From the NCBI GenBank assembly GCA_964489145.1, contig CAZAXL010000001.1, positions 1 through 50,909 of the forward strand: 50,909 nucleotides of DNA, written 5' to 3'. The stretch's first letter is position 1, and every line of letters starts with the position of its first letter. A program made the position numbers and the translations under genes. Below are positions 29,382 to 38,862 of the stretch, in pieces. The DNA comes from an uncultured Gammaproteobacteria bacterium. GTDB taxonomy: Bacteria; Patescibacteriota; Microgenomatia; UBA8517. The notes under the pieces are model-generated. The model had not been told where the DNA came from, ran no database searches, and worked only from the letters and a program-made list of their open reading frames with translations.

Positions 29382-30626
29382 TTATCCTGCTAAAAATCTA
29401 TCACCAAACCTTTTGGAAAATCCGTAAACCGTAAAAATAAAAACGGATAGTAAAAGCAGCAGGGACTTAATGCCGAATATTTCAACTATCGATCCGGAAA
29501 ATACAACCGGCAATACGGATATTGTTATGACTAGGAAAGAAAAATTGCCGAAAACCCTGCCCCTAAGGCCAGGCGGGGTTGATTCCTGCAAGAATGTCTG
29601 TGAAGGAACCAGTATTGCAACAAAGCCGAATCCTATAGCTACGAGCGTAAGGAACGAAAGTATAAATCTGAAAATGTATGCAAAAAGTGGAACAATAAAA
29701 GTCAAAAACAGAAGTGATATGGCCATTGTCAATAAGGCGGCATCGATGAGTGTTTTCTTTCTTACATCTCTTTTCAAAATTTTGGGTATAAAAAGAGCGC
29801 CAAAAACCGCTCCAATTCCGGCAGGCACCAGCATGTATATTCCGGCGCTGTTTAGAGGAATATTCAAAATATTTTTTGCCAAGGTTGGGAATTGAACAAT
29901 CACAACCTGCAGTGCAACCTGAAACCCGATGAGAAGGAGTACTGGAGTTAGTACTTTTCTTTCACTTTTTATAAAAGCGTAGCCGTCGCCTATATGTTTA
30001 AAGAAACCGAAAACGGCGGTTTCAAATCCTTTGGGGATTTCATTCTCGGATTTTAAGCTCGGTAAAAACAACGTGCTAATAAAAGCTATAAAAAGGAATG
30101 CGGAACATAAAAATATGGTGTTATTGAACCCCAAAAGTGCGTTGAGTAGTCCCGCCAGGGCAAAGCCTGCAACTAAAGAGCCCTGCTGAGTTATGAAGAA
30201 AAGGCTGTTGCCATGAACTAATTTGTCCTTTTTCAAAACGAATGCCAGAGTGGACGTTTCGGACGGGACATAAAACTGGTTCAATAAGGAATAAAGGAAA
30301 ACTACTTCATATAGAAAGAAAATGCTGGAATTTGCGGCAAAGCCAAAAATTAGTATTATCAGGGCCTGGAAAAGATTTGTAAAAATAAGCACTTTTCTTT
30401 TATCAACGAGATCAACCACGGCTGAGGCAAAAGGCCCCACCAGAATTGCGGGAAGCGCGTAAGCTACCCATAAAAGCGATGTTGAGATTGCCGAACCCGT
30501 AACTTCAAAAAGCCGGATTAAAAGCACAAAGTTCATAATGTTTATAGTCAGCTGAGAAAAAATCTGAGAAATCCAGATATATTTGAATTTTTTATTTTTA
30601 ATTACAGATTTGTAATCGCGTAGCAT
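29382..30626 (-). CDS. MFS transporter
   Basis: About 12 TM segments; D...K motif in loop 2-3 (VVDLVDKRK); RGRVFG in the C-terminal half. Confidence 0.9.
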   Translation of the reverse strand: MLRDYKSVIKNKKFKYIWISQIFSQLTINIMNFVLLIRLFEVTGSAISTSLLWVAYALPAILVGPFASAVVDLVDKRKVLIFTNLFQALIILIFGFAANSSIFFLYEVVFLYSLLNQFYVPSETSTLAFVLKKDKLVHGNSLFFITQQGSLVAGFALAGLLNALLGFNNTIFLCSAFLFIAFISTLFLPSLKSENEIPKGFETAVFGFFKHIGDGYAFIKSERKVLTPVLLLIGFQVALQVVIVQFPTLAKNILNIPLNSAGIYMLVPAGIGAVFGALFIPKILKRDVRKKTLIDAALLTMAISLLFLTFIVPLFAYIFRFILSFLTLVAIGFGFVAILVPSQTFLQESTPPGLRGRVFGNFSFLVITISVLPVVFSGSIVEIFGIKSLLLLLSVFIFTVYGFSKRFGDRFLAG

Positions 30627-30628
30627 AT

Positions 30629-32041
30629 TTAAAGATTTGGCAATATCGCTTTATAATCAATTTCCTTCTCGTATAGTTTTCCCAACTCGAATAGAACAGG
30701 TTCTGAAAATCTGGGACCCAAAAGCTGAAATCCTAATGGAAGTCCTTCTTCATTAAAACCCGAGGGAATGGAAAGCCCCGGAATTCCGGCAAGGTTGGCT
30801 GGTGCCGTAAAAATATCGGCCAAATACATTTTAAGAGGATCCGAGGCCTTTTCTCCGAGCTTAAATGCCGGGGTGGGCGAAACGGGCGCCAAAATTGCAT
30901 CAACTGTTTCAAAAACGGCTTCAAAATCCCCGATCAGCTTAGACCTGACTTTCTGAGCCTTAAGATAAAAGGCATCGTAATAGCCTGCAGATAAAACATA
31001 AGTTCCAAGCATAATTCTTCTTTTTGCCTCGGCTCCGAAATCCGCACGGGGATTTCCGTATCTTATTCCGTCATATCTTCCAAGATTCGAGGAAACCTCT
31101 GCGGGTTGAACGATGTAATAAACAGATATGGCATATTTGGTATGAGGAAGGCTGATCTCAGTCAGTTCAATTCCTGCTTTTTCAAAAACTTTGGATGCTC
31201 TAATTACGCTTTCGGCAACCTCTTTATCCACTCCTTCTACAAAATATTCTTTAGGGATGCCTATCTTTATTTTAGCCTTGGGTTTGACAAACTCTGCATT
31301 TTTGACGGTGCTGTCTCGTCCATCCTCTCCTTTGGTTACGTTAAAAACCGTTTCAACATCATCCACACTCTTACCGAAATTCCCAACCGAGTCAAGGGAA
31401 GAGGCCATAGCAATTATTCCATACCTTGAAACGGCTCCGTAAGTAGGCTTGAGGCCAACCACTCCGCAAAAGTTAGCAGGCTGTCTGATGGAGCCTCCTG
31501 TATCCGTTCCTGTGGCAATCAGAGAAAGACCTGCTGCAACGGAGACTGCCGAGCCACTGCTGGATCCTCCCGGAACAAACTTTTTATTCCACGGGTTCTT
31601 GGTTGGTCCGAAATCGGAATTTTCTCCGCTTGCTCCATGCGCCCAGGCATCGCAATTTGTTTTCCCTAAAATTATCCCCCCCGCTTTTTCCATTCTGGCA
31701 ACGGCGGTTGCGGAATAGGCAGGAACATAACTCTCAAGCACTTTGGAGGCTGCTGTTGTTCTTATTCCTTTAGTTAAAAATAAATCTTTATGGCCTATCG
31801 TCGCACCGAAAAGAGGAAAGTTTTCCGAAAGAGCTAAAGAGTCATTCGCAATAAGTTTATCTACCTCTCCGGCTTTTTTATAAGCTTCATCATCACAAAC
31901 TGTTATGTACGCGTTCAGGTCTTTCTCTTCGTTTATTTTTCCAAGATAGGTATCAACCAGCTCCGTTGCCGAGAACTTTTTCTTTAAAAGGCCTTCCTGT
32001 GTTTCCTTAATTGTCAGCGGGATGTCTTTCATATTTTTCAT
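30629..32041 (-). CDS. gatA: Asp/Glu-tRNA amidotransferase subunit A
   Basis: GGSSSGSA and GTDTGGSIRQPA amidase signature; EAKRRIMLGT. Confidence 0.97.
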   Translation of the reverse strand: MKNMKDIPLTIKETQEGLLKKKFSATELVDTYLGKINEEKDLNAYITVCDDEAYKKAGEVDKLIANDSLALSENFPLFGATIGHKDLFLTKGIRTTAASKVLESYVPAYSATAVARMEKAGGIILGKTNCDAWAHGASGENSDFGPTKNPWNKKFVPGGSSSGSAVSVAAGLSLIATGTDTGGSIRQPANFCGVVGLKPTYGAVSRYGIIAMASSLDSVGNFGKSVDDVETVFNVTKGEDGRDSTVKNAEFVKPKAKIKIGIPKEYFVEGVDKEVAESVIRASKVFEKAGIELTEISLPHTKYAISVYYIVQPAEVSSNLGRYDGIRYGNPRADFGAEAKRRIMLGTYVLSAGYYDAFYLKAQKVRSKLIGDFEAVFETVDAILAPVSPTPAFKLGEKASDPLKMYLADIFTAPANLAGIPGLSIPSGFNEEGLPLGFQLLGPRFSEPVLFELGKLYEKEIDYKAILPNL

Positions 32042-32050
32042 AAATAAAAT

Positions 32051-32362
32051 CTATTTATCCGTTCTTCCCTCCAAAATAGCTTTGACTTTAAAATAACCGT
32101 TGTGAATTTTGTCGGATCCTGAAATTGCTTCCTCAGCGCTTAAGGACCCTTCAACAGTTACTTTATCCTCACGGTAAACATTCTCAAGTCCTGTTGTCTG
32201 GCTTGTCGGTTCGGTGTCTACTGTGTCAACTTCCGAAAGTTCGCTGAAGTGATTAATTACATTTGAAAGTTGCGGCGTAAATCTTTCAACTTCTGCCTCT
32301 ACTAAGTCTAATTTTGCGAGTTTGGCAACATGTAAAACGTCCTCTTTTGTGAGCTTTACCAT
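32051..32362 (-). CDS. gatC: Asp/Glu-tRNA amidotransferase subunit C
   Basis: V.HVAKLAKL, NVYRED, YFKVKAIL; adjacent to gatA. Confidence 0.95.
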   Translation of the reverse strand: MVKLTKEDVLHVAKLAKLDLVEAEVERFTPQLSNVINHFSELSEVDTVDTEPTSQTTGLENVYREDKVTVEGSLSAEEAISGSDKIHNGYFKVKAILEGRTDK

Positions 32363-32404
32363 ACTCTCGTAATAATATCGCCAAATAGAATTTTTAACAA
32401 GAAG

Positions 32405-33334
32405 TTAAGCCATCCCTTTCAAGATTTTTATGCGCTCTGCAATCGGCGGGTGTGTGTTAAAAAGATTTGCAAACCATGAAACGCCCCCTTGTTTTTTACC
32501 TTTAAAAGGATTGGAAATATAAAGATGTGCTGTGGCTTTATTTGCAACCTCCAAAGGTTCGCTATCAGCTGAAATTTTGGTTAACGCAGAGATTAAACCG
32601 CTAGGTTGCCTTGTTAGCTCAACTGATCCCGCATCTGCAAAAAATTCACGACGCCTGGAAATTGCTAATTGAATGAGTTGTCCGATAATCGGGGACAGAA
32701 TGGCAAAAACTATCCCCAAAACCAGAAAAATTGAGCTTCCGCTATCCCTATCGTTATTGTTTCTTCTTCCACCAAACCAAGTTGCCCTTAAAAGCCAGTC
32801 GCCCAGAAGTGCTACAAGACCGACCATTACAGAAACAACCGACATCAGCCTTGTGTCATAATTTCTGACATGGGTTATTTCATGGGCAACTACCCCTTCC
32901 AGTTCAGTTCGGTTTAATTTTTCCAAAAGCCCGGATGTTGCGCAAACCGCAGCGTGAGCCGGGTCTCTACCTGTCGCAAAAGCATTCGGCGCAGAATCAG
33001 CTATCACGTAAAGCTTGGGAACCGGAATCCCGGCTCCTATGGCGATATTCTCGGCAACTGTATAAAAAAGAAAGTCCTTTTTCCTGTCTGCGGGTCTTGC
33101 TCCTGAAATTCCCAAAACAATCTGATCGGAAAAATAATAACCGACAAAACTGGAAATTCCCGAAACAATCAAGGCAACGCCCACAAATCCCAGCTGGCCC
33201 GGTTCATATCCAAAATAAATACTCATAGCTTTGGCCAAAACGTAGGTGGCTAAAGCAACAAACACGACAAAAAGAGCGACGACAGCCGCACTCTTGATCT
33301 TATTGGACTTTTGAACTTCGTAAATATTTCTCAC
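32405..33334 (-). CDS. htpX: M48 zinc metalloprotease HtpX
   Basis: PNAFATG, VAHEITH, SRRREFFADA, THPP..ERI. Confidence 0.93.
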   Translation of the reverse strand: MRNIYEVQKSNKIKSAAVVALFVVFVALATYVLAKAMSIYFGYEPGQLGFVGVALIVSGISSFVGYYFSDQIVLGISGARPADRKKDFLFYTVAENIAIGAGIPVPKLYVIADSAPNAFATGRDPAHAAVCATSGLLEKLNRTELEGVVAHEITHVRNYDTRLMSVVSVMVGLVALLGDWLLRATWFGGRRNNNDRDSGSSIFLVLGIVFAILSPIIGQLIQLAISRRREFFADAGSVELTRQPSGLISALTKISADSEPLEVANKATAHLYISNPFKGKKQGGVSWFANLFNTHPPIAERIKILKGMA

Positions 33335-33359
33335 AGATCAATTAGAATTTCAAAATTAA

Positions 33360-33941
33360 TCAAAGATTAATTTTTGGGGTTTTCATTTCCTCTTTTCCAA
33401 CTTTTAACTCATCCCCGTCAACAGGTGTTTCCAATCCTTTTAATTTTTCAAAGCGGAAAATGCCTGCAATTACGTTACTTGGAAATGAAACCATTTTGAC
33501 ATTATAATCTGCCGTCAAATCTATAAGAAGACGCCTTGCATACATGACTTTATCCGACGTGTCCCTTAGCTCATCCATTAAGTTTTTGACCACCTCGCTG
33601 GCTTTTATCTCAGGATTATCTTCAACCACCACCTGAATTCTAGGTAAGAGGTCAGAAAGCATCTTTCCGGCATCAGTCATTTTTTTCAAGTCACCCGAGT
33701 TCATCGCAGAAGAAATTGCTTTTCTCGCGTTTGTTAATTCGTCAAAAATACCTTTTTCGTGGGTCAAATACCCTTTAGCGGAAGATTCCAAATTCGGAAT
33801 AAGTTCAAATTGTCTTTTAAGTTGATTGCCAATTTCCTGAATTGCCGCACCGACTCTAGTTTTTGTGCTGACAAAAAAGTTGTAAACAGAGATTACCCAA
33901 AAAACTAATATTATTAAAATTGCTACAGGTACATACATCAT
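33360..33941 (-). CDS. lemA: LemA-family protein
   Basis: N-terminal TM, LKRQFELIPNL, E..P..KAS, YN.....FPSN.IA; SD GGAGGTGA upstream; paired with htpX. Confidence 0.92.
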   Translation of the reverse strand: MMYVPVAILIILVFWVISVYNFFVSTKTRVGAAIQEIGNQLKRQFELIPNLESSAKGYLTHEKGIFDELTNARKAISSAMNSGDLKKMTDAGKMLSDLLPRIQVVVEDNPEIKASEVVKNLMDELRDTSDKVMYARRLLIDLTADYNVKMVSFPSNVIAGIFRFEKLKGLETPVDGDELKVGKEEMKTPKINL

Positions 33942-33961
33942 CGTTTATTCACCTCCCTTCG

Positions 33962-34024
33962 CCCTTCCGTAGCTTCATGCGAAGGAGGGTTTCAATCCTC
34001 ATTCAGGCTTCGGAGAGGCAAGCC
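33962..34024. repeat. Pair of REP-like palindromes in inverted orientation (REPIN-like)
   Basis: CCCTTCC-GTAG-CTTC-ATGC-GAAG-GAGGG (33962-33989) plus a degenerate opposite-strand copy CCTCTCCGAAGCC inside the GGCTT...AAGCC hairpin (34006-34024). Confidence 0.5.
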
Positions 34025-34027
34025 TTC

Positions 34028-35746
34028 TTAGAATTGTTTTAACAACAATTCAAAATCCTTAAGGCTTCGAGTATTTATTATATCACGGGCCCCACACCAA
34101 CCCCGTCTCGCAACAGAAACTCCAAAAGTTATGTTATTCATTCCGTCTTTATGATGAGCATCGGTACCAAAAGTCATTTTCACACCAAGTTTCACAGCCT
34201 CACGAACTAGATTATCCGGCAGATCCAGTCTCATCGGATCGCAGTTTATTTCTATCCATTTATTGTTTTTGAGGCAAAAGTCAAAAATTTCAGGCCAATT
34301 AAGCTCAACTCCTTCCCTCTCGTTAAGCTTTCTGGCTGTTGGATGGGCAAATATGCGTACTTTAGGATGAGTAAGAGCAGTTAAAACCCTCTTTGTCATC
34401 AGGTCTTTTTCCAAATTGAAATTTGAGTGAATGGAAACAAGGGCAAAATCTAAAAGTTCCAATCCTTGTTCGGGAACAGGTAGGCTACCGTCTGACAGGA
34501 TATCAATTTCAAGGCTATTGAATACTTTTTGTATACTACCTACATGCCTATTCTTTAATGAGTAATTAATTTCATCAATGTTTTCACGCTTTCTTTTAAG
34601 TATTTCCACGGTCTGGGAGTCGTTATGTCCTTTCTGGCTGGGGTTGTGTTCCGTAAAAGCAATATATTCATACCCTAACTCATTAGCCTTCTTTATAATT
34701 TCCTCCATGCTGCTTTCGCCCAGATCATGGCTTGTTTCTATATCAAAACTTGAGTGAATTTGAAGATCGCTTTTGACTTCCCCTAATTCAACTAAGTTTG
34801 GTAATTTATGCTCCTTGGCTGATTCAATTTCCCCTGTATCTTCCCTCAATTCCGGCTCGATATAATCCAATCCCAAATAATTATAAAAACTTTTTTCGTC
34901 TTCAAAATTTTTAATTTTTATTTTTAAATTTTTAATTGTTTTTATGCCGTATTCGGAAAGGCTCAACCCTTTTTTGAGAGCCAGTTCACGTAGGGCTATG
35001 TTGTGATGTTTTGATCCTGTAAAATGCTGTAATAGTGAGCCGTAAGATTCAATTGGTTGGATCATTAAATCAACCTGAATCCCTCCCGGAAGGAGAATTG
35101 AAGCTGTGTGCTCACCTTTTTCTATTATTTTTTGAGATTTTGGATATTTAGTAAAATAATCAATCACCGCTACAGGATCATTAGTGGCTACGGCAATATC
35201 AATGTCACCAATGGTAGATGCCTGACGTCTGAGGCTTCCTAGAGGGTCTACATGCACAGTGGCTGGGTTTTCTGATAAATACTCCATTACTTCATGGGCT
35301 ACCATGGCGGCGTAGGGCAAAAGGTGACGCTTTCCCTTTTTCTCCTTTTCGGCAATTTCTTTTAATTTTCCCCTAACTTCTTTAGGGTTTCCCTCTTTAA
35401 TCATTTTCATGGCTGTTTTGATTCCAATTCCGGGTAGTTCCATGAGCTTAAAGGCATCGGTGGGAATATCTTTCATCAGACTGTCAAAATGTTTGGAGCG
35501 TCCTGTTTTGAAGAGTTCACCCAAATGTTCAGCTATGCTCGGCCCAATGCCGGGAACATCTTCAAGTTTCCCATCATCCCAAAGGTCTTTAAGCTCGGAA
35601 CTGGCGTGTTCAACTGCGTCGGCCGCTCGTTCGTAGGCAATTATCTGAAATTTATACTTATCTTTATCTCTCAACTGATATGATGCGGCCACATCTCTTA
35701 GAAGCTCCGCAATTTGGAGGTTGGTGTAGATTTTTTTCGATTCCAC
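34028..35746 (-). CDS. polX: Family X DNA polymerase with C-terminal PHP domain
   Basis: GSLRR...GDIDIAV, QVDL, HFTGSK.HN, PELRED; PHP DLQIHS, HP..R, TDAH; GTG start. Confidence 0.93.
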   Translation of the reverse strand: MESKKIYTNLQIAELLRDVAASYQLRDKDKYKFQIIAYERAADAVEHASSELKDLWDDGKLEDVPGIGPSIAEHLGELFKTGRSKHFDSLMKDIPTDAFKLMELPGIGIKTAMKMIKEGNPKEVRGKLKEIAEKEKKGKRHLLPYAAMVAHEVMEYLSENPATVHVDPLGSLRRQASTIGDIDIAVATNDPVAVIDYFTKYPKSQKIIEKGEHTASILLPGGIQVDLMIQPIESYGSLLQHFTGSKHHNIALRELALKKGLSLSEYGIKTIKNLKIKIKNFEDEKSFYNYLGLDYIEPELREDTGEIESAKEHKLPNLVELGEVKSDLQIHSSFDIETSHDLGESSMEEIIKKANELGYEYIAFTEHNPSQKGHNDSQTVEILKRKRENIDEINYSLKNRHVGSIQKVFNSLEIDILSDGSLPVPEQGLELLDFALVSIHSNFNLEKDLMTKRVLTALTHPKVRIFAHPTARKLNEREGVELNWPEIFDFCLKNNKWIEINCDPMRLDLPDNLVREAVKLGVKMTFGTDAHHKDGMNNITFGVSVARRGWCGARDIINTRSLKDFELLLKQF

Positions 35747-35787
35747 AGCTAGATTAATCTTAACATAATTGATATAATTACGTTTCT

Positions 35788-36051
35788 GGGGTCGTAGCTC
35801 AACTGGCTAGAGCGCTTCCCTGTCGATTGTGGCAGCGTTCCAGAGTAATTTGGAATGTAAAACCAGGCTAATTCGGGGAAACCTTTAAAATGGCAATCCC
35901 GAGCTAAAGCTGCGTTCAGTTTATGTGAACGTAGTAAATGTGTAGAGACTATATACCTGGCTCCTATTTTTAGGATGATGAGATAGTCCAAACTTTTTGA
36001 AAACAAAAAGGTGCACGGAAGAGGTTGCGAGTCCGAATCTCGTCGATCCCG
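35788..36051 (+). tRNA. tRNA-Asp(GTC), interrupted by a group I intron; exons 35788-35823 and 36014-36051
   Basis: The joined exons fold as acceptor GGGGTCG/CGATCCC + G73, D arm GCTC/GAGC, anticodon stem CTTCC/GGAAG with loop CT-GT|C-AC, T arm GCGAG/CTCGT; TG-a-TATAAT lies upstream (35770-35778). Confidence 0.92.
35824..36013 (+). ncRNA. Self-splicing group I intron (IC3-like, 190 nt, no ORF)
   Basis: P1 CUGU/GCAG with U.G at the splice site; P10 GUG/CAC; P2 closed by GUAA; P3 CCAGG/CCUGG; P4 UUCGGG/CCCGAG; P7 GACUA/UAGUC; P8 UCCUA/UAGGA; P9 CUUUUUG/CAAAAAG; terminal G at 36013. Confidence 0.92.
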
Positions 36052-36075
36052 CCCAATAATATTATTATTTTCCTA

Positions 36076-36104
36076 TTGACTTCATTCGTTTCTTCCTCTA
36101 CATT
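36076..36104 (+). promoter_or_regulatory. sigma70-type promoter TTGACT-N17-TACATT for the LysM gene
   Basis: Exact 17-nt spacing; SD AAGGTGA before the TTG start. Confidence 0.6.
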
Positions 36105-36142
36105 CAGCCTAACTCTGCCCTTCGGAAAGAAGGTGAATAAAT

Positions 36143-36703
36143 TTGAAATTTGATCAAAATAACAGTTTTCAACTAAAAAAACTTCTCAAACAAATAAAAC
36201 TTAACGAGGAAAATATTAGCATGATTTTAGGGGCAATAGTCCTTGTTATAGTTGGAGTCTTGGTTGTAAATTACTTTAAAGACAAGGGAAACGGCAGTAT
36301 TACGATAGACTCAACTCAAACATCAGCTATTAACGAACACACTGTGGTAAAAGGTGAAACATTATGGTCGATTGCAGAAAATTCATATGGTTCCGGATAT
36401 AACTGGGTAGACATAAAAAGTGCCAATAATTTAGAGACAGATAATATTGAGGTTGGACAAAAATTAATCTTACCTGATGATGTCGCACCAAACGAACCTA
36501 CAACAACAGAGGAATCTCAAACTGTTTTACAAGAATCGCCTATAACAAGCGAGACCTACACAGTAGTTAAAGGAGACAGCCTGTGGAATATAGCAGTCAG
36601 AGCCTATGGCGATGGTTTCAGATGGACTGAAATTGCAGAGGTAAACGAATTAGATAACCCAAATATAATTCATACGGGAAACATTCTAATTTTACCCAGA
36701 TAA
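36143..36703 (+). CDS. Membrane-anchored protein with two LysM domains
   Basis: HTVVKGETLWSIAE..YG.G..W..I..AN and YTVVKGDSLWNIA..AYGDG..W..IA..N. Confidence 0.93.
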   Translation: MKFDQNNSFQLKKLLKQIKLNEENISMILGAIVLVIVGVLVVNYFKDKGNGSITIDSTQTSAINEHTVVKGETLWSIAENSYGSGYNWVDIKSANNLETDNIEVGQKLILPDDVAPNEPTTTEESQTVLQESPITSETYTVVKGDSLWNIAVRAYGDGFRWTEIAEVNELDNPNIIHTGNILILPR

Positions 36704-36767
36704 TGAAGCCTTGGAAGGCGGATATGCTGAATCAATGATATAATTCGTGTGTCTTTGTTGTGCCGAT

Positions 36768-36838
36768 GCGGGTGTAGTTGATCGGCTCAACGCCACCTTC
36801 CCAAGGTGGAAAGGGCGGTTCGACTCCGCTCACCCGCT
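36768..36838 (+). tRNA. tRNA-Gly(CCC), atypical D arm, CCA not encoded
   Basis: GCGGGTG/CACCCGC acceptor, GTTG/CAAC D stem, CCACC-TTCCCAA-GGTGG, TTCGACT T loop, U73. Confidence 0.9.
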
Positions 36839-36870
36839 CACGCCCAGAAATGCTATAATTGAGCACATAA

Positions 36871-36943
36871 GCCGAGGTAGCTCAGTTGGCAGAGCGGCGG
36901 TATCGTAAACCGCAGGTCGTGGGTTCGATCCCCACTCTCGGCT
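36871..36943 (+). tRNA. tRNA-Thr(CGT), CCA not encoded
   Basis: GCCGAGG/TCTCGGC acceptor, GCTC/GAGC D stem, GCGGT-ATCGTAA-ACCGC, TTCGATC T loop; TG-c-TATAAT upstream. Confidence 0.93.
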
Positions 36944-36953
36944 CAAAAATAAA

Positions 36954-37670
36954 ATGAAAAAGTTTACAAGAAGGTTTATAAATTCCGAGGAGAGAAAAAA
37001 CACAAGAAGCGCTACTTTTTATATATTGCTGACAATTGCCGCCATTGCGATACTCTATTTTGTCGGGATACCGGCTCTTGGCAGGCTTGCTTCTCTTGTT
37101 TCCAGCCTTAGAGGTAATAACAATAAAATCAGCAGCTCCGACATTACCCCACCTCCACCCCCCAAATTTAAATATTTTTCGGAATTCACCAACCAACAAA
37201 CCCTGACATTAGCAGGTAACACAGAGTCGGGAGCCTCGGTAAAACTTACTTTTAATGGAAATCCCCAAGAGGTCTTGGCTGACAACGATGGACAATTTTC
37301 GTTTGGCGTCACCCTACAGGACGGAGTAAACACTTTTGCGGCAACCGCAACCGACCAATCGGGAAACCAAAGCCAAAAATCGGATGACCATCAAATAACT
37401 TTTGACAAGAAAACACCTGATTTGGAAATAACCTCACCCTCAGACGGTTCCAGTTATTTTGGATCCAACCAAAGACAGATCACAATTACAGGAAAAACCG
37501 AAACTGACGCCAAAGTTACAATTAATGACAGAATTATTTCAGTTGACGATTCCGGAATTTTTCAATATACAACAACCCTAAATGAAGGCTCGAATACCTT
37601 TAATGTAAAGTCCACTGATCAGGCAGGAAACACCACTGAAAAAAATATAAGCCTCAACTTTACTCCTTAA
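36954..37670 (+). CDS. Membrane-anchored protein with two bacterial Ig-like domains
   Basis: TM helix, Pro-rich linker, repeated ITG.TE..A.V..N / G.F.....L.EG.N.F...ATDQAGN pattern. Confidence 0.8.
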   Translation: MKKFTRRFINSEERKNTRSATFYILLTIAAIAILYFVGIPALGRLASLVSSLRGNNNKISSSDITPPPPPKFKYFSEFTNQQTLTLAGNTESGASVKLTFNGNPQEVLADNDGQFSFGVTLQDGVNTFAATATDQSGNQSQKSDDHQITFDKKTPDLEITSPSDGSSYFGSNQRQITITGKTETDAKVTINDRIISVDDSGIFQYTTTLNEGSNTFNVKSTDQAGNTTEKNISLNFTP

Positions 37671-38862
37671 CGCTAACTGCAAGAAGAATTACAACATATC
37701 CCATTATCCAAGGGAAAAACAGAGAATTGGAAAACAGACTATGAATAAATAGTGCCATAGATACCGCAATTACGGTTTGTGCTTCACGGCTTTTGGGTAG
37801 AGATTTGAATACTCCAAGGATGCTTCCCGCGAATACCATCAGACCGATCGTGCCGGTTGTTGCAAGGATCAAAAGCAAACTTGAGTCGGACCCCGAACAT
37901 GCATGAGAGGTAAAAGATTCCACTCCTATATATTTATTTCTTGCGATACAAAGATTATTAAACCCGACTCCAAATACTGGGAATTTTTTAAACACCTCAA
38001 TGGTCTCCTTATAATTGTCCAACCTGGCAATAATACTAAATGAACGTGTCAGCTCTATGCTATGGTTTTTTGCCGTCGGCAAGAGTAAAGCAAAAATCAA
38101 AAAAGTAACCGCCAAAACCATCATTTTTCTAAACTTCTTTTCCGCAAAAGCGATAACAAAGATACCCCCTAAAAATGCCAGATAGCTGGCTCTTGAATAG
38201 GTAAATGCCAGAGACACCAAAAGAAACACTGTAATTAATAAATACTTTTTTTCTCTACTATCAATGAATCGATTGATCGATAGCAACAATCCGAAAACTA
38301 TAATTAGGCCCAAAAATGTGGGATCCAGGAAAGTACCCACCAGACGGAACAAGTGCATATCCCAACCGTAAACAAAAAATGGTTTAATATCCGGAAAAGC
38401 AAAAAGTTGAATCCAACCAAAAACTGCTGAAATAACCGAGATCGTCAAAAGACTGCTTGAAAGTAAATGGCCGTTGGTAGGACTTTTTTTAGCAAAATTC
38501 CAAACATAATTTAAAAAGAATGTATAAGCGACAATACGGACCAGATAAAATAGACCGTAAAGAACTTGGTACTTAAAAATGAATACCGATAAAATGAATG
38601 AGAAACCCGCGGCTACCAAAAAATATTTAAGGTATTTGTAAACTTTTGGTTTTTCTTTTTCAAATAAAATCGAGTAAAGCGCCCCTAATCCAACCACAAC
38701 GTCGATAGGCTGAAGAGGCATATTTAAACTGCCAATACCAAAACTCAATCTGATAATTTGTCCGAAAGGAAAAAGGACCAAAAACAAAAAAAGAAATACG
38801 CTTTGCAGCGAAAATAAACTATCTAATTTGATTTTCTTTGTAATTCCCATTGTTTTGACCAT
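37660..38862 (-). CDS. O-antigen ligase/Wzy_C family protein
   Basis: Multi-TM; RLVGTFLDP, TYSRASYLA, PVFGVG, HSLFSN. The start may be a few codons downstream. Confidence 0.85.
   Translation of the reverse strand: MVKTMGITKKIKLDSLFSLQSVFLFLFLVLFPFGQIIRLSFGIGSLNMPLQPIDVVVGLGALYSILFEKEKPKVYKYLKYFLVAAGFSFILSVFIFKYQVLYGLFYLVRIVAYTFFLNYVWNFAKKSPTNGHLLSSSLLTISVISAVFGWIQLFAFPDIKPFFVYGWDMHLFRLVGTFLDPTFLGLIIVFGLLLSINRFIDSREKKYLLITVFLLVSLAFTYSRASYLAFLGGIFVIAFAEKKFRKMMVLAVTFLIFALLLPTAKNHSIELTRSFSIIARLDNYKETIEVFKKFPVFGVGFNNLCIARNKYIGVESFTSHACSGSDSSLLLILATTGTIGLMVFAGSILGVFKSLPKSREAQTVIAVSMALFIHSLFSNSLFFPWIMGYVVILLAVSVKE

Follow-up and report, generated by a model that had tools for sequence, protein, structure and literature searches.

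A compact 190-nt candidate group I ribozyme in the anticodon of a Woesebacteria tRNA-Asp(GUC) gene

An interrupted tRNA-Asp gene and its splice junction

In a Candidatus Woesebacteria (Patescibacteria) genome, the gene for tRNA-Asp(GUC) is very probably split at position 35/36 by a genuine, compact group I ribozyme intron of 190 nt that carries no open reading frame (ORF). This is the best explanation, mechanism and evolution included, of what we found in the 50,909-nt stretch of DNA analysed here (the window). All features described below lie on its plus strand unless stated otherwise. Exon 1, at 35788-35823 (GGGGTCGTAGCTCAACTGGCTAGAGCGCTTCCCTGT), holds the 5′ strand of the acceptor stem, the D arm, the 5′ strand of the anticodon stem, and C32, U33, G34 and U35. 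It ends CTTCC-CT-GT at 35823, and 12 other genomes have the same or nearly the same sequence. The intron occupies 35824-36013, starting with CGATTGTGGCAG and finishing with AAAAAGGTG, and its last base is G36013. Exon 2 (36014-36051; CACGGAAGAGGTTGCGAGTCCGAATCTCGTCGATCCCG) begins C-AC-GGAAG at 36014 and supplies C36, A37 and C38, the 3′ strand of the anticodon stem, the variable loop, a T arm with the loop UCCGAAU, the 3′ strand of the acceptor stem, and the discriminator G73. The insertion point thus lies between the anticodon nucleotides U35 and C36. When the exons are joined, ARAGORN reads the product as tRNA-Asp(gtc), in agreement with an earlier note on this DNA, which had held that joining restores the GUC anticodon. 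CCA is absent from the gene, the bases directly after exon 2 being CCCA, so 3′ maturation would need a CCA-adding enzyme.

The earlier note had also warned that standard tRNA finders may miss this gene, and two of them did. Default ARAGORN returned only tRNA-His, tRNA-Gly and tRNA-Thr from the window, and the Rfam tRNA model gave the same three. The proposed group I identity was borne out by the Rfam group I model RF00028, which matched 35807-36010 over the full model (1-253) with 77.1 bits (gathering threshold 50; E = 6e-18). This score is far beyond chance, and the match is the only one to group I in the window. A custom covariance model built from Asp introns (R1) gave the intron 214 bits. 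As a guide to the boundaries we dropped the RF00028 alignment: it starts at 35807 within the tRNA body, pairs AGCGCUUCC with GGCAGCG-U as its “P1”, and ends 3 nt short of the terminal G. Four other indications fixed the boundaries: the U.G wobble, the G at the end of the intron, the reading of the tRNA and an intron-free allele.

At the DNA level the insertion is ambiguous by 1 nt, as intron and exon 2 both begin with C, and the terminal-G rule resolves this. The intron-free allele comes from a metagenome contig, L108, in which an uninterrupted tRNA-Asp reading CTGTCAC stands in the same gene order as in the window. The two are ~90 to 93% identical in DNA over window positions 30001-37812 and 91.8% identical in their PolX proteins, and the alignment is interrupted exactly at 35824/36014. 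This alignment establishes CUGU/CAC as the junction. The ends at 35823 and 36014, the 190-nt length and the split at 35/36 claimed in the earlier note all hold to the base. Its suggestion to survey relatives for intron-less alleles also bore fruit: the uninterrupted anticodon arm reads CTGTCAC in at least 120 metagenome contigs, the syntenic L108 among them.

In its intron mode (-i), ARAGORN calls a different junction, 35821/36012, and a different product, “tRNA-Ala(tgc)”. The host would then be tRNA-Ala(UGC) and the intron would lie two bases upstream, at 35822-36011, with exon 1 ending at U35821 and exon 2 starting UGCAC. This is an exact program call, and here too the 5′ site is preceded by a U and the 3′ site by a G (G36011). 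However, U35821 forms a Watson-Crick pair with A35834 and no wobble, and neither P1 nor P10 can be drawn in this register. The tRNA body carries G3:C70 and G73, whereas by established identity rules tRNA-Ala normally has G3:U70 and A73; the body therefore fits Asp and is not Ala-like. The uninterrupted metagenome alleles, L108 among them, do not read CTTGCAC. We give a tRNA-Ala host practically no chance, the call being refuted by the intron-less L108 allele, and treat the gene as tRNA-Asp(GUC).

Upstream of exon 1, a promoter scan found TCCACA-16-CATAAT at 35742-35769. An extended -10, TGATATAAT, was picked out by eye at 35770-35778 and is kept as TGGTATAAT in intron-less L108. Since the numbers of sites in the promoter and terminator scan were not above shuffle expectation, we offer 35742-35778 as the tRNA-Asp promoter only as a low-confidence guess. 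No ORF of 60 aa or more was found on the plus strand of the intron (35824-36013). Only one ORF overlaps the intron, a minus-strand TTG frame of 85 aa (35749-36006) that extends across exon 1 into the promoter region. This frame is in all likelihood spurious, and annotation programs might call it instead of tRNA-Asp.

Fold of the intron and the proposed splicing pathway

The fold we propose has 56 pairs, every one of them canonical in the window sequence, and all core helices from P1 to P9, as well as P10, can be drawn. The P1 hairpin (35820-35835) pairs CUGUC at 35820-35824 with GGCAG at 35831-35835. Inside P1, U35823 forms a U.G wobble with G35832, and the 5′ splice site lies directly after this U. 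The wobble is flanked by three exon pairs (C-G, U-A and G-C) and, within the intron, by C35824-G35831. P10 joins GUG at 35829-35831 to CAC at 36014-36016. Through these two pairings, the internal guide sequence GUGGCAG (35829-35835) complements every base of the ligated loop CUGUCAC of the anticodon arm, the U.G wobble excepted. The 3-bp P10 with GUG recurs in 6 of the 12 other Asp introns (L029, L014, L032, L012, L004 and L025). The terminal guanosine (omega-G) is G36013, with the 3′ splice site directly after it, and this position is G in 13 of 13 Asp introns.

The remaining helices follow in order. P2 (35837-35856) has 8 bp, 35837-35844 with 35849-35856, closed by a GUAA (GNRA) tetraloop at 35845-35848. 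P3 is formed by CCAGG at 35863-35867 and CCUGG at 35956-35960. Within 35873-35902 lie P4 (35873-35878 with 35897-35902), J4/5 (AAA), P5 and J5/4, P5 consisting of two G-C pairs only (CC 35882-35883 with GG 35892-35893). The segment 35903-35941 contains P6, GC at 35903-35904 with GU at 35940-35941, and the 10-bp hairpin P6a, 35909-35918 with 35926-35935. The 5′ strand of P7 (35945-35951) is made up of G35945, a bulged A35946 and GACUA at 35947-35951, and it pairs with UAGUCC at 35984-35989; from general knowledge of group I introns, we take P7 to be the guanosine-binding helix. P8 (35962-35975) pairs UCCUA at 35962-35966 with UAGGA at 35971-35975, and P9 (35993-36010) pairs 35993-35999 with 36004-36010 in 7 bp around the loop AAAA at 36000-36003. 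An unconstrained minimum-free-energy fold recovers P2, P3, P4, P5, P6a, P8 and P9. The segment folds with a stability of z = -4.79, and none of 200 shuffles was equally stable. The structural marks listed in the earlier note (the U.G pair at the 5′ splice site, P10, P3, P4, P6 to P9, the terminal G) are thus all present, and its description of a minimal intron with a very short P5 and no ORF was accurate.

An RF00028 score above threshold, the P1 wobble, omega-G and a conserved core with the bulged A of P7 together place the insert among group I introns. Bulge-helix-bulge introns of archaea and eukaryotes are short, usually lie at 37/38, have the motif for which they are named and lack a ribozyme core; the window insert sits at 35/36 of a bacterial gene and has the full group I core. 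Nor does it have the endonuclease ORF in a peripheral loop that marks a homing intron.

To obtain homologues, we searched for a pattern covering P1 and P4 in a genome set with one representative of each GTDB species, and obtained 40 loci. All but one also match the covariance model built from Asp introns; L026, on a Cyanobium contig, fits the DNA pattern but not the model and was set aside as a chance match. After splicing, the hosts are tRNA-Asp(GUC) at 12 loci plus the window, tRNA-Asn(GUU) at 24 and tRNA-Tyr(GUA) at 1, with two further Asn-like genes cut by contig ends. The insertion is at 35/36 in every homologous locus. The 37 complete introns measure 179 to 293 nt (two more are cut by contig ends), the Asp introns of the 12 other species genomes, all at the same site, 183 to 203 nt. 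None of the 39 homologous introns has an ORF or is long enough for an endonuclease. Viral contigs scanned with the same pattern yielded no match.

A MAFFT alignment (A1) misaligned P2 wherever J2/3 was longer and was therefore replaced by a covariance-model alignment (A2). In the resulting 40-sequence alignment, which is fitted to the structure of the model and so leans towards it, 92.3% of pair cells are standard versus 77.3% in column shuffles, and 32 to 47% when partners are slid. Both sides are altered in 32 of the 56 pairs, and the covariation score is 0.347 versus 0.119. Compensatory changes are located in P2 (8 of 8 pairs altered on both sides), P6a (10 of 10), P9 (6 of 7), P8, whose length varies, and P3, where 3 of 5 pairs are affected (e.g., CCGGG/CCCGG, CUAGG/CCUAG and UCAGG/CCUGA). 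P1, P4, P5, P6 and P7 are unbroken throughout, and P6, like P4, P5 and P7, shows no change of sequence. The five P1 pairs are unchanged in 40 of 40 homologues, though their bases were fixed by the search pattern, and P4 and P5 are paired in all 40. As the pattern also fixed the 5′ strand of P4 and the CC of P5, the conservation of these elements is partly imposed. P7 and the 3′ strand of P4 lay outside the pattern and are nevertheless invariant, and the 3′ strand of P5 was likewise unselected. The six P7 pairs are formed wherever letters exist (39, 39, 39, 39, 39 and 37 of 40).

The closest relative of the window intron is in L029 (Ca. Woesebacteria bacterium UBA8517), whose identity to the window is 95 to 97% across 35440-36953 and reaches 98.3% in the 197-nt intron segment. 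The two introns differ in L2 (GUAA to GUGA), in P2 (G.U to G-C), in the P5 loop (A/G) and in L9 (AAAA in the window versus GAAA). The first three differences keep pairing or loop class, a pattern suggestive of purifying selection. As for the fourth, GAAA in L029 indicates that the leading G of a GNRA tetraloop has become A in the window. GAAA is found in 9 of the 13 Asp introns and the variants GUAA and AGAA, grouped with GNRA, in two others; L014 shares AAAA with the window. The change could weaken a tertiary contact, and its presence in L014 as well means that the loop has been tolerated over evolutionary time.

From the pairings and geometry described above, we infer catalysis by the canonical two-step group I pathway, the best-supported reading. 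The gene would be transcribed as a pre-tRNA of ~265 nt, in which the guide GUGGCAG would pair with CUGU of exon 1 to form P1, placing the U35.G wobble at the 5′ splice site. In the first step, attack after U35 would come from an external guanosine bound by P7. The guide would then hold CAC of exon 2 in P10 while the terminal G36013 occupied the G-site, and the 3′-OH of U35 would attack after G36013. Such guanosine-dependent self-splicing would ligate CUGU to CAC and restore the GUC anticodon loop, and RNase P, 3′ trimming and CCA addition would finish the tRNA. Searching the literature, we came across no splicing experiment on any tRNA intron at 35/36.

Could the insert instead be a decayed, non-splicing relic and the interrupted gene a pseudogene, with Asp decoded by another copy elsewhere? 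P5 is minimal, L9 is AAAA and not GNRA, a homing endonuclease is missing, and the genome is in view over 51 kb, within which there is no second tRNA-Asp. Against decay, the exons and all core helices are intact, and the helices have been kept through compensatory changes in thirteen species. No change occurs in P7 or the 3′ strand of P4, which the search did not select, the differences from L029 in L2, P2 and the P5 loop preserve structure, and the AAAA loop occurs also in L014. Patescibacteria, moreover, have small genomes with usually one copy of each tRNA gene. We consider decay very improbable. With a splicing intron as the preferred reading, it is plausible, on the 51-kb view of the genome, that Asp decoding in this cell depends on splicing.

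Relation to known tRNA introns

Williams (2020, bioRxiv 10.1101/2020.01.27.920355) expanded the four classical settings of tRNA introns (Leu at position 3, fMet at position 2, Arg and Ile2 at position 5) to 21. Position 4 in that numbering is 35/36, and the seed alignment of the same work contains Wba81.Asp.4Ug, Pam37.Asn.4Ug, Mba143.Tyr.4Ug and Mpe6.Lys.4Ug. The earlier note had qualified its claim by pointing to reports of 35/36 introns in tRNA-Asp and tRNA-Asn of Patescibacteria, and the Asp and Asn seeds bear this caution out. The novelty that it implied for a 35/36 tRNA-Asp intron falls, because the same intron type at the same site is already catalogued there. In later literature on tRNA introns of Patescibacteria we found only a general remark, by Lui et al. 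(2021, PMC8172020), that group I introns in tRNAs of such genomes hamper detection.

The Wba81.Asp.4Ug seed agrees with our locus L016 at every stretch compared (P1-P2 directly, the rest by eye), which would identify it with the intron of Ca. Woesebacteria bacterium GW2011_GWF1_31_35 (CP011214.1). The window intron has the properties that define Asp.4Ug: a tRNA-Asp host, position 4, U at -1 and G at omega. At 75% identity over a 197-column segment, it is by sequence clearly related to the L016 intron. Both interrupt an Asp GUC gene at 35/36 after a U, end in G and form P1 from CUGUC/GGCAG; the P4-P5 block (CUAAUUCGGGGAAACCUUUAAAAUGG) and the J6/7-P7-J7/3 block (GUGUAGAGACUAUAUACCU) are identical, and PolX is the upstream neighbour gene of each. 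They differ in the sequences of P2, P6a, P8 and P9, with compensatory changes, and in length (190 nt in the window, 196 nt in L016). P10 is a perfect 3 bp in the window (GUG/CAC) and GAG/CAC in L016, L9 is AAAA rather than GAAA, and the host T loop is UCCGAAU rather than UUCGAGU. The site and host were thus catalogued in 2020 in a related Woesebacteria genome, and the window intron is a further case of that class; it opens no new category.

The Asn.4Ug and Tyr.4Ug introns, in tRNA-Asn(GUU) and tRNA-Tyr(GUA) of Patescibacteria, share with the window intron the 35/36 site, P1, the guide, the core and the lack of an ORF, and they score 62 to 164 bits on the Asp-derived covariance model. Unlike in the window, their 3′ exon starts UAA or AAA, which leaves P10 weak or missing. 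Many exceed the window intron in length, reaching 293 nt, and their range of hosts is wider: Parcubacteria, Saccharibacteria-labelled MAGs, and Yanofsky-, Nomura-, Kaiser-, Gottesman- and Roizmanbacteria.

The introns of Azoarcus pre-tRNA-Ile(CAU), Leu(UAA) at 34/35, fMet at 33/34 and Arg(CCU) at 36/37 all belong to subgroup IC3. Like the window intron, these classical introns are ~200 nt long, free of ORFs and located in the anticodon loop, with tetraloop-capped P2 and P9 and no P5abc extension. Their P4 (AAUUCGGxGAAA) and P7 (GUAGAGACUA ... AUAGUCC) are very similar to those of the window. They differ from it in the host tRNA and in the phosphodiester interrupted (positions 2, 3 or 5 versus 4). 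J3/4 is CUAA in the window and AAA in the classical introns, and the window P6 has 2 bp followed by an internal loop. The resemblance to IC3 seeds thus extends to P4 and P7 sequence, size and the missing P5abc, and J3/4 and P6 depart from it. Classical introns have been shown to self-splice and Azoarcus structures have been solved (PMC13168695); for the window intron, self-splicing is predicted from its structure.

New here are the base-exact boundary, taken from an intron-free relative ~90% identical in sequence; the covariation that backs the fold; the ruling out of a tRNA-Ala host; the finding that Asp introns form a single clade nested in Asn introns; and the pattern of presence and absence among close relatives. 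The main untapped value of the window intron is as a small, 190-nt candidate ribozyme for the first experimental test of 35/36 splicing.

Neighbourhood, evolution and consequences

The other Asp loci have in common an upstream gene for a PolX-type polymerase (Pfam DNA_pol_B_thumb, HHH_8 and PHP) and often have a downstream LysM gene and tRNA-Gly. Several local rearrangements were seen around the gene. L029 has ~465 extra bases between its PolX gene and tRNA-Asp (L029 7189-7704 versus window 35737-35787), which hold a 136-aa ORF (L029 7201-7611) absent from the window. The window and L029 share gene order only until just past tRNA-Thr(CGU) (window 36944-36954; L029 1-6012). The interval from tRNA-Gly to tRNA-Thr is longer than in the window by ~1.6 kb in L108 (8054-9641) and by ~1.2 kb in L014. 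This tRNA cluster appears to be a hotspot of insertion and rearrangement.

The T loop of the window tRNA-Asp, UCCGAAU at 36033-36039, has C at position 55, and so do those of L012, L014, L029, L032 and L108. Among tRNAs, U at this position (pseudouridine 55) is almost universal. The C55 variant is common to a subclade of five intron-bearing species and the intron-free L108, and the same loop occurs in the Asn genes of L037 and L040. The normal T loop, UUCxAxU, is found in the remaining Asp genes and in the window tRNAs for His, Gly and Thr.

Eight of the loci (L001, L004, L012, L014, L018, L024, L034 and L040) come from TPA MAG records labelled “uncultured Gammaproteobacteria bacterium”. The tRNA-Asp loci among them have the Woesebacteria gene order PolX / tRNA-Asp / LysM, and all eight records carry the Patescibacteria-type intron. 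On these grounds the labels look wrong. By this gene order and its closeness to L029, the window belongs to Ca. Woesebacteria (Microgenomates, Patescibacteria).

In a neighbour-joining tree of the PolX protein, the intron-bearing loci all fall within one subclade, and all deeper branches are intron-free. Inside that subclade are at least six sister pairs of opposite intron state, among them window/L108, L016/L095, L024/L092, L012/L139, L014/L121 and L032/L079. By this tree, Asp introns appear restricted to one Woesebacteria subclade, in which interrupted and uninterrupted genes are interspersed even between near relatives. Intron and host trees agree in broad outline, with a window-L029-L014 group and an L004-L009-L024-L025 group; an L001-L032 grouping and the placement of L012 conflict with PolX. 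When all 40 introns are placed in one tree, those of tRNA-Asp group as a single clade within the tRNA-Asn introns. One MAG, JAGVAE01 (Ca. Woesebacteria DeMMO6_57), has 35/36 introns in both tRNA-Asp (L032) and tRNA-Asn (L037), and the two are not each other's closest relatives. All of these are neighbour-joining trees from short alignments, drawn without support values. They fit a single switch from tRNA-Asn to tRNA-Asp, which share C32-U33-G34-U35 at the insertion site, then inheritance that was mainly vertical, perhaps with occasional lateral transfer, and precise loss on repeated occasions.

The patchy distribution might also be read as ongoing lateral mobility, either by reverse splicing into the CUGU anticodon loops of Asp, Asn and Tyr or through a homing enzyme acting in trans. 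The sister pairs of opposite state would suit this, as would the two conflicts with PolX, and one P1 and guide sequence serves three tRNA species that share C32-U33-G34-U35. These conflicts come from trees as limited as those just described, however, and otherwise intron and host trees are broadly congruent. The Asp introns form one clade, the two introns within JAGVAE01 are not closest relatives, none of the 39 homologous introns has an ORF, and the viral contigs gave no match. We regard ongoing mobility as unlikely, though not negligibly so, and favour vertical descent with repeated loss after one switch.

The interrupted gene has consequences for how these genomes are read. Default tRNA finders skip the interrupted tRNA-Asp, and the intron mode of ARAGORN mislabels it tRNA-Ala. 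Genomes of this Woesebacteria subclade will therefore seem to be without tRNA-Asp, and this apparent absence affects inferences about genome completeness and codon usage. For the intron family itself, it is rather improbable, but conceivable, that the lineage is still moving without an endonuclease, by reverse splicing: hops from Asn to Asp and Tyr and re-entry into intron-free alleles, together with precise loss, would keep the polymorphism among ~90%-identical relatives. The guide is complementary to the C32-U33-G34-U35 loop of tRNAs with GUN anticodons, namely Asp, Asn, Tyr and possibly His. Speculatively, GTP-dependent splicing may gate the supply of these tRNAs in nucleotide-scavenging Patescibacteria.
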